Shown piece after piece: positions 4,533 through 37,225 of a stretch of 38,221 bases of DNA (position 1 is the first letter of the stretch; every line of letters starts with the position of its first letter). Position numbers and translations under genes: made by a program. The DNA lies in the IMG/VR virus record IMGVR_UViG_2565956731_000004, positions 1-38,221 of that record; one strand, 5' to 3'. Source of the DNA: a virus (Duplodnaviria > Heunggongvirae > Uroviricota > Caudoviricetes). The notes beneath the pieces were generated by a model. The model saw only the letters and a program-made list of their open reading frames with translations, did no database searches and had not been told where the DNA came from.

Positions 4533-4608
4533 TGCACCTCATAAAACGGGTGCCGGGATTCTCAACCCGATACAGAGCAAAGCGCATAACCGCGCCAGCG
4601 GTTTTTTT
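4533..4608 (+). ncRNA. candidate c4-like antisense RNA (about 75 nt)
   Basis: Sigma70-like -35 TTGCCA (4498..4503), 17-bp spacer, -10 TTACAT (4521..4526); intrinsic terminator AACCGC-GCCA-GCGGTT followed by T7 (4588..4608); lies directly upstream of an icd-like ORF as in P1 c4-icd; contains GATTCTCAAC, whose complement GTTGAGAA occurs in the downstream leader. Confidence 0.35.
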
Positions 4609-4787
4609 GTGCGTACTGTATTGCCACGTCTTTTTCGCGTCAGAATTATGGCGGGGCGTACGGGGCCGACTTCGGTCGGGCCGGATTCTTTGCTCTCCGG
4701 TGTTGAGAACCCTGTACGTCTCGCCACCCCGAGATTCTCAACTCTGGATGGTGAGTTATTTCTATCACTGAGCAAAGAGGCCACACC

Positions 4788-32658: not shown

Positions 32659-33768
32659 ATGACCGACACCACCATGCAATTGCTCAGTCAGGGCACAGAC
32701 CCCGTGAAAATGCCGGATTTTGATATTCTCGCGGAGGGTAAAACGCTGTCAGGCGTGGCAGAGCGCCTGATGAGCCTGTCACTGACCGACAACCGGGGAT
32801 TTGAAGCAGACCAGCTCACCATCACGCTGGATGATGCGGATGGTCAGTTGCAGCTACCGCCACGGGGCGCGCGCCTGACGGTTCTCATTGGCTGGAAAGG
32901 AGAACCGCTGACAGAAAAAGGCACTTACATTGTTGATGAAATCGCTCACGAAGGACCGCCGGACAGGCTGACTGTTTCAGCCAGAAGTGCAGATTTTCGG
33001 GATGAATTTAACGTTAAACGTGAGGTGTCCTGGCATGATGTGACCGTTGAACGTGTGGTATCCGCCATCGCTCATCGGTACGGCCTGAAACCGCAAATCA
33101 GCGAAATGCTGATGGATATCGAAATCGACCACGCCGACCAGACTGAAGAAAGCGACATGTCCTTCCTTACGCGCATGGCGGAAATGCTGGGCGCAATCAC
33201 CACGGTAAAAAGCGGCAATCTGTTATTCATCATGCCAGGTGGTGGCGTGAACGCACAGGGCCAGCCGTTGCCCTCGTTCGCCATTACACGCAGCAGCGGC
33301 GATCGCCATCAGTTCCGCATTGCTGACCGCGAGGCGTATACGGGGGTACGCGCCTACTGGCTTGATCTTAATTACGGGAAAAAGAAAAAAGTCAGCGTGA
33401 AACGCCGCAAACCGCCAAAACCCAAAAAGGAGAAAAGCAGCAGCCGTGAAGGTGATTATATGGAAGGCGCGGAAGGCAATGTGTTTGTGTTACGCAAGAC
33501 TTATCAGAACGAGCAGGCAGCAAGACGCGCAGCGGCGGCAAAGTGGCAGCAGCTACAACGCGGAGCCGCATCATTCTCCATCACACTGGCACGCGGACGC
33601 GCAGAACTCTACCCCGAAATGCATGGCACGGTAACAGGATTTAAAAGCGAGATTGATAATCAGGACTGGATTATTGCAAAAGTCGAGCACACCGTTGATA
33701 ACAGCGGCTTTACCACGCAGCTTGAGCTTGAAGCAAAAATCCCGGAATGGATAGCGGAAACAGAATGA
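32659..33768 (+). CDS. D: tail protein D (late control gene D-like)
   Basis: 369 aa from the ATG with GGGAGGG RBS (MTDTTMQLL...); divergent from FI rather than downstream of U. Confidence 0.85.
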   Translation: MTDTTMQLLSQGTDPVKMPDFDILAEGKTLSGVAERLMSLSLTDNRGFEADQLTITLDDADGQLQLPPRGARLTVLIGWKGEPLTEKGTYIVDEIAHEGPPDRLTVSARSADFRDEFNVKREVSWHDVTVERVVSAIAHRYGLKPQISEMLMDIEIDHADQTEESDMSFLTRMAEMLGAITTVKSGNLLFIMPGGGVNAQGQPLPSFAITRSSGDRHQFRIADREAYTGVRAYWLDLNYGKKKKVSVKRRKPPKPKKEKSSSREGDYMEGAEGNVFVLRKTYQNEQAARRAAAAKWQQLQRGAASFSITLARGRAELYPEMHGTVTGFKSEIDNQDWIIAKVEHTVDNSGFTTQLELEAKIPEWIAETE

Positions 33769-33879
33769 GCGATTTGGAGATATTAAATCAAACATGAGTA
33801 AATATTACCAATAACAGAGTGTACTTATTGGATGTATAGTTCTTTCATTTTTTAGGAGAAATTAAGAAAATTAACTCAA

Positions 33880-33911
33880 TGTGCACCTTATAAAGGCGCA
33901 CACTTTGTTTT
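33880..33911. terminator. bidirectional hairpin between D and the ParA-like gene
   Basis: TGTGCACC-ttataaa-GGCGCACA followed by a T-rich run; perfect with one G-U pair on the minus-strand transcript. Confidence 0.55.
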
Positions 33912-33916
33912 GCATG

Positions 33917-34975
33917 TTAAAAATTATTTATTATGTGTTCAGCTAAATGATCATACTCACCAGCCATCTCATTCATTAGTTCTACCTGATTAACTGCCCA
34001 TTGCCCCCGCCCACGAAGAGCATTCGTTGGCCTAACTCGAGACAAATAGCGAATAGGTATATTTTGAATAATACTATCAGGAGCCATAACGTTGAGGTCC
34101 TCAATCTTTCCAACTGGTTCATAATCAGTAAAATCAGGAACCGCGTTGTAAGATGAAATCTGTGAAAGCTGAGGAAGCATTTTTTCCTCTATCGCTTTTC
34201 TTATTGAACGGTGATGAACTGCATCTGCACCAACCTCTTGTTTAACATCATTTTGCTTTCTCGTATCAAAACCATTGAATATCCAACCGCCAAATTTAGG
34301 CATCCCTTTCTGAGATATAATATTATCTCGTGGGTTACCTGATAGATATCTTTCCTTGCCCTGCTCCCAATCACGTATAAATGATGGCAACATCTCACCA
34401 ATCAGCCCTACACAATATGAAGAGAATAAATCAGGTGTGCATGGAACTAAAAAATAGTCCGAACAGTACAATGACGATCTAACAAGCGTATTGAATGAGG
34501 GAGGTAAATCTATTAGGACATAATCATAAATAACATCATTTTTCTCTGATGCTTTTTTTGTTATCAAATCTGGCAAAATAAAACGATATAACCCTGCGCC
34601 ACTTATAACATCAGTGCCGACATTTAAAATATCTGAAAATGTATTAAGCCAAAAGTCTCCAGGAACAATATGCAAAACGCCTGCATCTGTCTTAGTCTTA
34701 GGTTCTGTTGTATAAACTTCACCTATAGTATTTTGTTGTATGTAAGGCAATGCAAATGCTTTAACCGTTTTTCCAAAAGGGAAATCATCTGAAGGTTCCA
34801 ATAACTCTGAAAATTCCTCATCACCAATACATGCAATTGAGAGATTACACTGGGGATCAAAGTCTATTAATAAAACACTTTTTCCTTTATCTGCTAGCGA
34901 TACTGCAAGATTCCAAATTATAGTTGTTTTACCAACACCACCTTTGTTATTAAAAATCGATATAGTTTTTGTCAT
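33917..34975 (-). CDS. ParA/MinD-family P-loop ATPase with about 100-aa C-terminal extension, AT-rich gene
   Basis: 352 aa; deviant Walker A KGGVGKTT near the N-terminus; LLIDFDPQCN and DYVLIDLPP motifs; flanked by AT-rich intergenic DNA; composition clearly AT-richer than the tail genes. Confidence 0.8.
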   Translation of the reverse strand: MTKTISIFNNKGGVGKTTIIWNLAVSLADKGKSVLLIDFDPQCNLSIACIGDEEFSELLEPSDDFPFGKTVKAFALPYIQQNTIGEVYTTEPKTKTDAGVLHIVPGDFWLNTFSDILNVGTDVISGAGLYRFILPDLITKKASEKNDVIYDYVLIDLPPSFNTLVRSSLYCSDYFLVPCTPDLFSSYCVGLIGEMLPSFIRDWEQGKERYLSGNPRDNIISQKGMPKFGGWIFNGFDTRKQNDVKQEVGADAVHHRSIRKAIEEKMLPQLSQISSYNAVPDFTDYEPVGKIEDLNVMAPDSIIQNIPIRYLSRVRPTNALRGRGQWAVNQVELMNEMAGEYDHLAEHIINNF

Positions 34976-35234
34976 TTACAACCCTTATTTCAGTGAAATT
35001 TTCGTTGAGAATCAGCATTTGTTTTTTTGCATAAACCACAATTCAACTTTGAGATTAACACAAGCCTTATTGTTATACATTAAAATCCTACTCAAATGAC
35101 ATCATTGAGATACTCATGTAATTTATTCGCCACGACAAAGCCTACTTCAGTGACTTGCTCAAAGCGGAGTTGCTGTTGGAATCTGAGTTGGGGCAACTTA
35201 GAATGGTGGCAGCACCACGTTAAGGGAGGTCGCT

Positions 35235-35495
35235 ATGTTTCGTTGTCCGCTTTGTGGCGCATCTGCCCGTATCCGCACCAGTCGTCCTGAAAATGATTCA
35301 AACACCGTGCGGCAAAAGTATTACCAGTGTAACAATCTGGAATGCGGCGTATGCTTCTCAACACTGGAAGCTTTCCATAAATTCACATCAAAACACGCCT
35401 CCGGCGCTCTCTCTTCAGAAGGTATCCCGTGGCATAAGCTGCCAGCTTCACACAGGGGAAACAATCAGATGAGTTTGCCTTTACCTCAGAATTAA
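35235..35495 (+). CDS. ogr: late gene activator, Ogr/Delta zinc-finger family
   Basis: 86 aa; MFRCPLCG...YYQCNNLECGVCF Cys4 arrangement as in P2 Ogr; located near the prophage right end. Confidence 0.75.
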   Translation: MFRCPLCGASARIRTSRPENDSNTVRQKYYQCNNLECGVCFSTLEAFHKFTSKHASGALSSEGIPWHKLPASHRGNNQMSLPLPQN

Positions 35496-35686
35496 TGGGC
35501 AGAATTGCCGGAGCAACAAAAAAGCGATAGATTACGCGCGGGTGCCTTTCGGCTGATGGTCGGAGGGAATACCCGAAGGCCAGATGTGGAAAGGCCCCGG
35601 AAAACATTTCTGTTTAACCGAGGCCCTAACATATCTACCTTAAGCAAGTGATAGGTTAGCGCCTCTCCAACAAAGGAGCAAGCGCT

Positions 35687-35827
35687 ATGTCGCAAAAATC
35701 GCTTACGGCCATCACGTTCTGCGTGACGGTAATCCTCATCATCTGGATGCTGCACGGTTCGCTGTGTGAAATACGGATGAGCTTCTGGGGAGCGGAGTTT
35801 GCGGCGTTCTTACAGTGTAAGCAGTAA
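35687..35827 (+). CDS. Hok/Gef-family type I toxin (46 aa)
   Basis: MSQKSLTAITFCVTVILIIWMLHGSLCEIRMSFWGAEFAAFLQCKQ; single TM helix plus SLCE and AAFL motifs as in recalled HokA; AAGGAG RBS; below the ORF-track size cut-off. Confidence 0.6.
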   Translation: MSQKSLTAITFCVTVILIIWMLHGSLCEIRMSFWGAEFAAFLQCKQ

Positions 35828-35836
35828 GGAAACCGC

Positions 35837-35858
35837 GACGGGGGAGTAATCCCCCGTC
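35837..35858 (+). other. hairpin immediately 3' of the hok-like ORF
   Basis: GACGGGGG-agtaat-CCCCCGTC. Confidence 0.5.
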
Positions 35859-35916
35859 AATCGGTTGCCAGGGTAAGGTCGATAAGGCACCCTATCTTAC
35901 AGACATGAACAACAAG

Positions 35917-35948
35917 CCCGCAGCGTAAAAACTGCGGGTTTTCTTTTT
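35917..35948 (+). terminator. intrinsic terminator after the hok-like locus
   Basis: CCCGCAG-cgtaaaaa-CTGCGGG followed by TTTTCTTTTT. Confidence 0.7.
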
Positions 35949-35980
35949 GGTATCCCCATCCATAAGCAATAGGCATAACA

Positions 35981-36018
35981 GATCGATGCAATAAATCCGA
36001 TCGATAAAAACGATCGAT
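35981..36018. promoter_or_regulatory. cluster of three GATCGAT motifs upstream of the com-like / methyltransferase operon
   Basis: GATC at 35981, 35999 and 36012, each within GATCGAT, about 45 to 80 bp upstream of the com-like start. Confidence 0.45.
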
Positions 36019-36062
36019 TTGTTATCATATCGGCAGCAGTAACCACACAAGAGGTGCCGCAA

Positions 36063-36260
36063 ATGACGCAAAATGTACGATGCAAAAATTGCAACAAACT
36101 ACTTGCCCGCGCCTCATTTCACTACATTGAAATAAAATGTCCGCGCTGCAAAACACTTAACCAGATAACGAGAGCCATTGAGCCCCCCACACACATGAGG
36201 AGTTATGACCGTGGGGATCGCAATCCAGCACCAACCAGCACATACACCGGAACACACTAA
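36063..36260 (+). CDS. Com-like zinc-ribbon protein (Mu Com family)
   Basis: About 65 aa from the ATG at 36063 (AAGAGG RBS); VRCKNCNKLLARASFHYIEIKCPRCKTLN matches recalled Mu Com (IRCKNCNKLLFKA...HIEIRCPRCK); 3' end overlaps the methyltransferase start by 56 nt. Confidence 0.6.
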   Translation: MTQNVRCKNCNKLLARASFHYIEIKCPRCKTLNQITRAIEPPTHMRSYDRGDRNPAPTSTYTGTH

Positions 36261-36996
36261 GGTTTATCAGACTGACAATGCCACGCTCTGTCGTGGGAAT
36301 GCGCTGGAAATATTGCCGCTGATTGAGCCAGAAAGTATTGATGCCTTAATCACTGACCCGCCTTACAGTTCGGGCGCGACACACAAGGCCGGACGCACCA
36401 ACCAGGGCAGCCACGCAAAATATCTGAACGGCGAGAACCTTCATCGCTTTGATGGGTTTGCGGGTGAAAACATGGATGCCCGTTCGTGGGCTTACTGGAC
36501 ACAATTATGGATGGCACAGGCACACCGCGCAGTCAGGCCGGGCGGTTATGCCCTGGTATTTACTGACTGGCGACAACTGCCAGCTTTAACCGATGCGTTT
36601 CAGGCCAGCGGTTTTACATGGCGTGGAATCATTGCGTGGAACAAAGGAAGGGGGTCACGAACACCCCATACGGGGTATTTCCGGCATCAGTGCGAATACA
36701 TCGTCTGGGGCAGTAAAGGCCATTTAGGTAAATCGCCTTCGGGACCGTTCGACGGCTGCATGACGTTCCCGGTTATCCCATCAAAGAAAATGCACCCGAC
36801 CGGAAAACCAGAAGAACTTATGGCAGAACTGGTCAGGACTGCGAATAGTGGTGGAACAGTCCTTGATCCTTTTATGGGATCGGGAACAACGGGTGTTGCA
36901 GCACTGAAAGCAGGGCGCAAATTTATTGGTATAGAAACCAGTGATCATTATTTTGATATAGCAACACAACGGCTCAAAACGGCGATCGAACCATAA
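36205..36996 (+). CDS. DNA methyltransferase (N6-adenine/N4-cytosine class, DPPY motif)
   Basis: 263 aa; catalytic DPPY (LITDPPYSS) near the N-terminus and AdoMet motif DPFMGSGTTG near the C-terminus; GAGG RBS. Confidence 0.85.
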   Translation: MTVGIAIQHQPAHTPEHTKVYQTDNATLCRGNALEILPLIEPESIDALITDPPYSSGATHKAGRTNQGSHAKYLNGENLHRFDGFAGENMDARSWAYWTQLWMAQAHRAVRPGGYALVFTDWRQLPALTDAFQASGFTWRGIIAWNKGRGSRTPHTGYFRHQCEYIVWGSKGHLGKSPSGPFDGCMTFPVIPSKKMHPTGKPEELMAELVRTANSGGTVLDPFMGSGTTGVAALKAGRKFIGIETSDHYFDIATQRLKTAIEP

Positions 36997-37060: not shown

Positions 37061-37225
37061 CGCTGATACAAATCCTTTTATATCAAGAAATTAAATCTTT
37101 GTTTTTTTCATCAACAAGGATTTTCACGTTTGTGTTACCTGTATGAGACGAGAGTTAACCAGACAAGTGTGCCATAATCTCGCGGCCAGGCATACTTGCG
37201 AAGATTTCAGGTATAAGGATACGTA

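Follow-up and report, generated by a model that had tools for sequence, protein, structure and literature searches.

Does the short Hok-like reading frame that follows ogr in this prophage belong to a working toxin-antitoxin module, and by what means could such a module be controlled? The hok/sok system is the textbook case of antisense control exerted through a coupled leader peptide, so that a widespread prophage-borne subfamily with every element of the RNA switch but without mok would show the leader peptide to be dispensable, and would offer a simpler natural system in which the toxin is gated by mRNA refolding alone. We analysed the window, by which we mean the whole stretch of 38,221 nucleotides of viral DNA, and conclude that a P2-family (Xuanwuvirus/P88-like) prophage in it probably carries, as accessory cargo between ogr and attR, an intact type I toxin-antitoxin module of the Hok/Sok kind. 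The gene and its neighbours are as follows.

35235-35495: ogr, the upstream neighbour (Pfam Ogr_Delta)
35673-35678, plus strand: hok Shine-Dalgarno (SD) sequence AAGGAG, 8 nt before the ATG, enclosed by the anti-SD hairpin when the RNA is folded by prediction
35687-35827, plus strand: hok ORF, ATG start, 46 amino acids and stop, MSQKSLTAITFCVTVILIIWMLHGSLCEIRMSFWGAEFAAFLQCKQ
36054-36996: com-like zinc-ribbon gene overlapping an N6/N4 DNA methyltransferase gene, the downstream neighbour of hok

The 46-residue peptide has a hydrophobic stretch spanning about residues 7-23 and the motifs SLCE (residues 25-28) and AAFL (residues 39-42), and it scored 30.1 bits against the Pfam family HOK_GEF (PF01848; cut-off 22, E = 3.7e-7), residues 7-44 aligning with positions 5-42 of the 42 in the profile. 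Its residues C12, T14, L26, C27, E28 and E37 align with conserved positions of R1 Hok, HokA, HokB and HokC, and a published survey of Hok sequences gives M1, C16, T18, L30, C31, E32 and E41 as the conserved residues of its logo (bioRxiv 10.1101/2025.08.07.668861). Among named peptides HokA of K-12 came closest, with 43% identity; R1 Hok shared 28%. The first-pass annotation had described a 46-residue ORF with a Hok signature and a good ribosome-binding site and had named alignment as the check on its Hok-likeness; the profile score above cut-off, the conserved residues and the AAGGAG at 8 nt from the ATG all agree with it. RefSeq likewise holds the ORF as WP_000078920.1, 'Hok/Gef family protein', adjoining ogr, and phage records also name the gene Hok/Gef.

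We then considered to whom the locus belongs. The host of the window is E. coli, a 481-bp query of the locus being 100% identical in several STEC genomes; of 5426 complete E. coli genomes, 1550 contain a match. Several hok loci reside in E. coli chromosomes and the one studied here lies near the prophage end, both of which fit a chromosomal hok locus adjoining or swallowed by the prophage, an origin that had been offered as an alternative when the locus was first noticed. Nevertheless, the isolated P2-family phages P88, P884B11, 500465-2, Chuche and PhiR44_2 carry the hok locus at 95-97% identity, and in 77 of 80 related IMG/VR viral contigs hok stands directly downstream of ogr, less than 400 nt away. 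The other neighbouring genes vary among contigs, a ParA gene being found in 1 of 80 and the com-methyltransferase pair in 10 of 53, and Salmonella P2-like prophages at other integration sites show the order gpU-gpD-ogr-hok followed by host genes. Finally, homology of the window to K-12 starts only at 37105, in the 5' end of pdxB, past both com and the methyltransferase gene, which puts the hok locus some 1.15 kb within attR. The position of attR comes from the comparison with K-12; the record NZ_CP101292 is not collinear with the window and gave no attL. Because of the isolated phages, the ogr linkage, the Salmonella prophages and the start of K-12 homology at 37105, we assign the locus to the phage as cargo and regard a captured chromosomal hok as scarcely credible. 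In keeping with moron-type cargo, the locus lies inside the att boundary, occurs in isolated phages and has its own predicted promoter and terminator. The initial reading, which placed a type I toxin locus of the Hok/Gef family in the prophage right arm between ogr and the methyltransferase operon, agrees with peptide, RNA architecture and context, and the locus may act as an addiction module, as was suggested at that time. By its tight linkage to ogr, hok identifies a third site for accessory genes in P2-like phages; among the papers searched we found none tying hok to P2-like phages or to ogr.

We aligned 26 loci, found in E. coli, E. albertii, Salmonella, K. oxytoca and C. braakii at peptide identities of 61-100%, and used 24 of them in RNAalifold. 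A scan of genome contigs gave 7 loci, 3 of them under implausible names (a Planococcaceae MAG, Vagococcus and Xanthomonas), which are probably contamination. Across the 26 loci a conserved block reaches from the -10 box TAGATT and the adjoining GGGTGCC at its 5' edge to AAGGCACCC at its 3' end, at the element fbi. The predicted transcription unit comprises the following features.

35505-35533, plus strand: predicted hok promoter, -35 TTGCCG (35505-35510), 17-nt spacer, -10 TAGATT (35528-35533), 10 nt past the ogr stop
35540-35949, plus strand: predicted full-length hok mRNA, about 410 nt, from about 7 nt past the -10 box to the terminator, its ends set by homology
35831-35866, plus strand: GC-rich hairpin of the 3'-UTR, with helices 35831-35835:35862-35866 and 35837-35845:35850-35858
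35914-35949, plus strand: intrinsic terminator from a terminator scan, with a 10-bp stem and an 8-nt loop (35914-35941) and a T-run to 35949

The interval of about 190 bp given in the first-pass annotation as leader needs correction: it consists of a 10-bp spacer, the 29-bp promoter (35505-35533), 6 nt up to the start site and a transcribed leader of 147 nt that begins at about 35540. The GC-rich hairpin followed by an intrinsic terminator was found as had been described. In the 3'-UTR hairpin, 5 pairs were changed on both sides among the relatives, and at the terminator position most relatives have a GCCCGC...GCGGGC hairpin. By analogy with R1 (PMC9841398), the 3'-UTR hairpin is presumed to form the 3' end of the processed, active mRNA. 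The hok promoter has 8 of 12 consensus matches, which is under the threshold of a simple promoter scan; that scan picked up neither this promoter nor that of the antisense RNA described below, and both are placed by homology. The Rfam model RF01794 matched 35540-35697 on the plus strand over its full length (1-157) with E = 3e-9 and 47.9 bits, below the gathering score of 59. Although RF01794 bears the name "sok", the model represents the hok-mRNA strand and stops at the AUG of hok.

Within this predicted transcript we identified the set of pairing elements from which hok mRNAs build their alternative folds.

35540-35551, plus strand: tac, GGGTGCCTTTCG, pairing with fbi in the closed form or with ucb in the open form
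35589-35599, plus strand: ucb box, GAAAGGCCCCG, partner of the GAGG box (closed form) and of tac (open form)
35620-35624, plus strand: GAGGC box, homologous to the mok Shine-Dalgarno sequence of R1, hokB and hokC
35655-35667, plus strand: dcb, or anti-SD segment, GTTAGCGCCTCTC, partner of the GAGGC box (open form) or closing strand of the hairpin that covers the hok SD (closed form)
35792-35807, plus strand: partner of the start-codon helix, in which the AEFAAF codons pair with the ATG and codons 2-5 (35687-35702)
35880-35892, plus strand: fbi, CGATAAGGCACCC, the partner of tac and the 3' edge of the conserved block

The full-length RNA folded at -158.7 kcal/mol (z = -7.1 against shuffles). 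The RNAalifold consensus of the 24 loci contains 72 pairs, with 98.5% of alignment cells paired as against about 40% when the partners were slid, this structure having come from the same alignment on which the pairs were counted. Moreover, 14 consensus pairs were changed on both sides, in 65 cells, a count reached by 0 of 500 shuffles. The tac:fbi pairs 35540-35546:35886-35892 were kept in 24 of 24 loci (7 conserved pairs), and in their extension, 35549-35551:35880-35882, both sides were changed in 8-9 of the 24 loci in a fully compensatory manner. Similarly, the ucb hairpin 35593-35599:35619-35625 showed GC to AU compensation in 6 loci, and the anti-SD hairpin 35658-35662:35682-35686, which encloses the hok SD, was paired in 99% of cells. 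The GAGGC box was nearly invariant in 25 loci. In the start-codon helix, which has 14 pairs, 99.7% of cells were paired with only one-sided G-U/G-C changes. Third-position diversity was 0.149 in codons 35-46, against a comparison value of 0.421, and we attribute this near-invariance to the start-codon helix, which pairs there.

The open fold was also kept among the loci. It joins tac to ucb (35589-35598) and GAGGC at 35620-35624 to GCCUC at 35661-35665, and 94.6% of its cells were paired versus 34-57% with the partners slid. The tac:ucb pairs 12-53 and 13-52 were changed on both sides in 9 loci, and the tac positions that covary with ucb are the very ones that covary with fbi. All 24 loci retained the GAGGC:dcb pairs 35620-35624:35661-35665. 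One compensation in these pairs, from G-C to A-U, was matched in ucb, and in locus L106 a triple-coupled change joins ucb, the GAGG box and dcb. Coupled covariation of this kind in the hok family was reportedly described by Gultyaev et al. in 1997. In the energy model, the full-length RNA preferred the closed to the open fold by about 10 kcal/mol, while the gap shrank to less than 1 kcal/mol once the RNA was trimmed to 35866. On opening, the Sok target went from 0.16 to 0.60 unpaired.

We next turned to the expected antisense RNA, for which the annotated sokB of K-12 served as a guide. The following features were predicted.

35588-35645, minus strand: predicted Sok-like RNA of about 58 nt, from homology to annotated K-12 sokB
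35653-35681, minus strand: predicted Sok promoter, -35 TTGCTC (35681-35676), 17 nt, -10 TAACCT (35658-35653), with the -35 box overlapping the hok SD
35626-35652, plus strand: target of the Sok 5' tail, carrying the YUNR motif CUUA/UUAA at 35639-35643

Promoter spacing, +1 and terminator hairpin of the predicted Sok all align with those of sokB: TTGCTC-17-TAACCT-7 nt-G (35645) stands opposite TTGCCG-17-TAAGAT-7 nt-G, and the hairpin GGCCUCGG...CCGGGGCC aligns with the sokB hairpin. The RNA is predicted to consist of a 5' single-stranded tail (35645-35627), a terminator hairpin (35626-35618:35600-35593) and a short U-rich tail, and it folded at -29.7 kcal/mol (z = -4.6). Its promoter is predicted to be weak, with 6 of 12 consensus matches; some Salmonella relatives have TATCCT at the -10 position. 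The Sok target was the most variable segment of the leader, with a mean pairwise difference of 0.345 versus 0.08-0.27 in neighbouring segments, and a YUNR motif occupied the equivalent place in 24 of 24 loci in the form of several different tetranucleotides. The first-pass annotation had expected a sok-like antisense RNA and had proposed to look in the leader for its promoter and for fold-back elements; a sokB-like promoter, +1 and terminator hairpin do predict such an RNA.

The overlapping mok-like frame that had been expected alongside it is absent. In the window and its relatives (about 25 loci), no ATG, GTG or TTG stands 3-15 nt past the GAGG box. When mok was sought in frames -1 and -2, as an in-frame extension, and with SD-anchored and rare starts, none was found in the window and none was conserved in the relatives. 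The frame homologous to mok (hok -1) does not open until -43 and offers no start codon, while a TAG at -30 closes the hok frame in the window, the stop in relatives lying at -30, -9 or -39. Inside the mRNA the leader holds a single ORF (ATG 35556 to TGA 35650), which lacks an SD, stops 23 nt short of the hok SD and shows no conservation. As a control, the same script recovered mok in hokB, and in hokC and an R1-type locus mok was found by sequence, with the ATG 7-9 nt past CGAGGC in hokB, hokC and the R1-type locus. These results bear directly on a canonical three-gene hok/mok/sok module, in which Sok would block an overlapping mok frame coupled to hok translation. Such a module would account well for the GAGG box, which is the mok SD in R1, hokB and hokC and which is conserved at 35620-35623 and covered by the predicted Sok; however, with no start codon past the box, no start in the -1 frame, the hok frame closed, no usable leader ORF, and controls that do show mok, we consider it very improbable. 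With no mok frame, Hok would have to start directly at its own strong SD. That the 46-residue subfamily keeps the whole hok RNA switch yet is without mok is the only new element of the locus, and we regard it as a modest lead; none of the papers searched describes mok-less hok loci.

Could the loss of mok instead have left a translationally silent or decaying relic, with an untranslatable mRNA, that persists by hitch-hiking with ogr or through a role at the RNA level? The absence of a mok start codon in any frame is what such a relic would show, and in R1 the start codon and SD of mok are essential for Hok translation (PMC9841398). Furthermore, the hok SD and AUG were paired in all modelled conformers: across full-length, truncated, Sok-blocked and nascent RNAs, the unpaired fraction was 0.33-0.41 for the hok SD and about 0.2 for the AUG, so that both are largely paired in every state and thermodynamic modelling is uninformative on the hok translation step. 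Visibly decayed copies also occur, for instance L096, which is without tac, and truncated peptides of 25-29 amino acids are listed. On the other hand, mok is wanting in all 25 loci, which come from E. coli, E. albertii, Salmonella, Klebsiella and Citrobacter, and yet the ORF keeps its full 46 codons. Diversity by codon position among 24 relatives was 0.20/0.12/0.31, which is the pattern of a translated gene, the strong SD is retained at its 8-nt spacing, every regulatory helix is retained with compensatory changes, and tandem duplication of the locus occurs among relatives. Peptides of the same cluster have, in addition, been reported toxic when expressed (bioRxiv 10.1101/2025.08.07.668861). 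We therefore judge a relic improbable and prefer a functional module.

For this functional module we propose the following course of events. The weak promoter directly past ogr would make the hok mRNA of about 410 nt, and the end pairing of tac with fbi would lock this full-length RNA in a form whose base pairs take in the Sok target as well as the SD and start codon of hok; covariation shows the structure, and R1 suggests its function. In our model, slow 3' trimming to the 3'-UTR hairpin would take fbi away, and in the trimmed RNA the fold with tac:ucb and GAGGC:GCCUC would become isoenergetic with the closed one, exposing the Sok target. Judging by homology to sokB and R1, a short Sok transcribed from the promoter that overlaps the hok SD would then pair with 35588-35645 and lead to decay of the mRNA. 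Should Sok synthesis stop, whether through loss of the prophage, shut-off of host transcription by an infecting phage, or prophage induction, the stable mRNA pool would be translated; Hok may start at its own SD, presumably once the dcb/anti-SD segment joins the target hairpin. The 46-residue Hok would insert into the inner membrane and kill or lyse the cell, its toxicity being taken from the literature on a variant that differs in one residue. The putative role is most likely that of a transcription-shut-off module that benefits the prophage by excluding superinfecting phage, by killing prophage-free cells, or both. More generally, we put forward, as an evenly balanced proposition, that the 46-residue Hok subfamily (cluster 72 of the survey) is a functional, mok-independent variant of hok/sok, in which the former mok ribosome-binding site has become an element of the RNA switch, Sok acts by forced refolding and RNase III decay, and Hok is translated from its own SD, and that this variant is distributed among P2-like and lambdoid prophages of Escherichia, Salmonella and their relatives, at the att-proximal ends.

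We compared the locus with the known systems. Like hok/mok/sok of R1, the locus combines a Hok-family membrane peptide with tac/fbi end pairing, ucb and dcb boxes, a helix that joins the AAF codons to the start codon, a 3'-UTR hairpin of presumed protective role, a target containing a YUNR motif and, here by prediction, a cis-antisense Sok whose -35 box overlaps the hok SD. Unlike the locus studied here, R1 hok encodes 52 rather than 46 residues, is carried by a plasmid instead of a prophage, and has mok, whose former SD survives here only as a structural box. Of the K-12 loci, hokB and hokC have mok and hokA has an annotated mokA pseudogene, whereas our locus has none; IS elements lie beside or interrupt hokA and hokC, while the copy in the window is intact.

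The hok gene itself is already known, through its RefSeq and phage-record annotation, an exact peptide that has been catalogued and a one-residue variant reported as toxic. In the survey of Escalera-Maurer et al. (bioRxiv 10.1101/2025.08.07.668861), which found hok to be enriched in prophages and to occur in tandem 'islets', our exact peptide is listed as sequence 1628, in cluster 72. Of the 45 constructs expressed there, 42 were toxic, the 3 named non-toxic ones belonging to clusters other than 72; the cluster-72 members tested were 72_1621 (V15A, one residue different from our peptide), which was reported toxic on expression, and 72_1589, a Stx-phage variant, both falling among the 42. The first-pass annotation had named a lack of toxicity on overexpression as a refutation, and with 72_1621 others have in effect carried out that check on a one-residue variant. 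The survey covered coding sequences only and by its own account left Mok, Sok and mRNA structure aside, and neither the absence of mok nor the RNA covariation nor the ogr-hok linkage is described in it (bioRxiv 10.1101/2025.08.07.668861).

A further comparison was made with hokW-sokW of the Stx2 prophage Sp5 (Takada et al. 2021, PMC8621323). Sp5 hokW was tried as the 83%-identical Stx-phage relative of our locus and was ruled out, since the primers YO-357/YO-351 give a 51-residue paralogue (PMC8621323); hokW thus encodes a different peptide (51 amino acids, MKQQKAM...) behind an R1/hokD-like leader. Separately, both Sp5 and 933W also carry an unannotated 46-residue relative of the locus, adjoining lom, with 76% identity in amino acids and 83% in nucleotides; the copy studied experimentally in Sp5 was hokW and not this relative.

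No terminator-like site was found between the ogr stop codon and the hok promoter (window 35495-35540), so that read-through from ogr in lytic growth would generate hok transcripts extended at the 5' end. The terminator of hok is probably shared with ogr. At the other end of the locus, 27 of 80 viral contigs from IMG/VR (L016, L020, L023 and L024 among them) stop less than 1 kb past hok; in many, the contig end lies exactly 3 nt past the hok stop codon. When prophage boundaries are called from genes, the hok mRNA therefore loses its terminator together with fbi, its predicted 3' pairing element.

The orientation of Rfam RF01794 also matters for annotation. Named 'sok antitoxin', this model is oriented as the sense strand of the hok mRNA leader, with a consensus that stops at the hok AUG, and because it was built in this orientation its matches fall on the toxin strand, as in the window (35540..35697, plus strand). 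Annotating from RF01794 would thus assign Sok, the predicted antisense RNA, to the wrong strand.

Unannotated 46-aa hok loci were found in two Stx2 phages:

AP000363.1 44701..44838 (L004), phage Sp5/VT2-Sakai, 46-aa hok locus adjoining lom
NC_000924.1 45660..45797, phage 933W, 46-aa hok locus adjoining lom

Both share 76% amino acid and about 83% nucleotide identity with the window locus, and both are separate from the experimentally studied hokW. In Salmonella (L099, L100, L104, L105), 46-aa hok loci occur in tandem as two or three copies spaced by ~490-710 bp. A single P88-like viral contig (L019:2590) carries, 411 nt upstream of its main hok copy, a divergent second one. Tandem copies differ from each other in the leader segment predicted to be the Sok target. 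Another Salmonella copy, at a lambdoid prophage end (L096:2816-3266), retains an intact hok ORF and fbi but lacks tac, the 5' pairing partner of fbi, because its 5' end has been replaced, and this copy is probably decayed or regulated differently. Three further loci with 74-100% peptide identity (L005, L006, L009) lie on genome contigs of assemblies filed under Planococcaceae MAG, Vagococcus sp. and Xanthomonas pisi, where they most likely represent enterobacterial contamination.

The neighbourhood of the window locus contains additional genes:

33917..34975, minus strand, ParA/AAA_31-family ATPase gene
35981-36260 and 36205..36996, region with a Mu Com-like zinc-ribbon ORF and, overlapping it, an N6/N4 DNA methyltransferase gene

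The ATPase gene occupies an AT-rich island inserted between gpD and ogr, with a GC content of 0.32-0.40 versus ~0.52 in the flanks (window 33700-35200). Since it occurs in just one of 80 related viral contigs, the gene is, judging by this distribution, strain-specific cargo. Of 53 relatives, 10 carry the Com-like and methyltransferase pair. The 38-kb window as a whole contains three GATCGAT sites, and all of them cluster here, at 35981, 35999 and 36012, coinciding with the sole promoter-like site (TCGATA-16-TATCAT, 36001..36028), an arrangement similar to the Dam-site-controlled com/mom operon of Mu.

Further downstream, homology to K-12 picks up again at 37105, a point 23 nt into the 5' end of pdxB (window 37105-37127). 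As read from this homology, pdxB and flk flank the integrated prophage, and the start region of pdxB is duplicated at attR. The attL end falls beyond the window. Two Rfam small-RNA models matched above the gathering score in the prophage early region:

4534..4608, plus strand, isrK Hfq-binding RNA (62.8 bits)
4644..4731, plus strand, C4 antisense RNA (78.5 bits)
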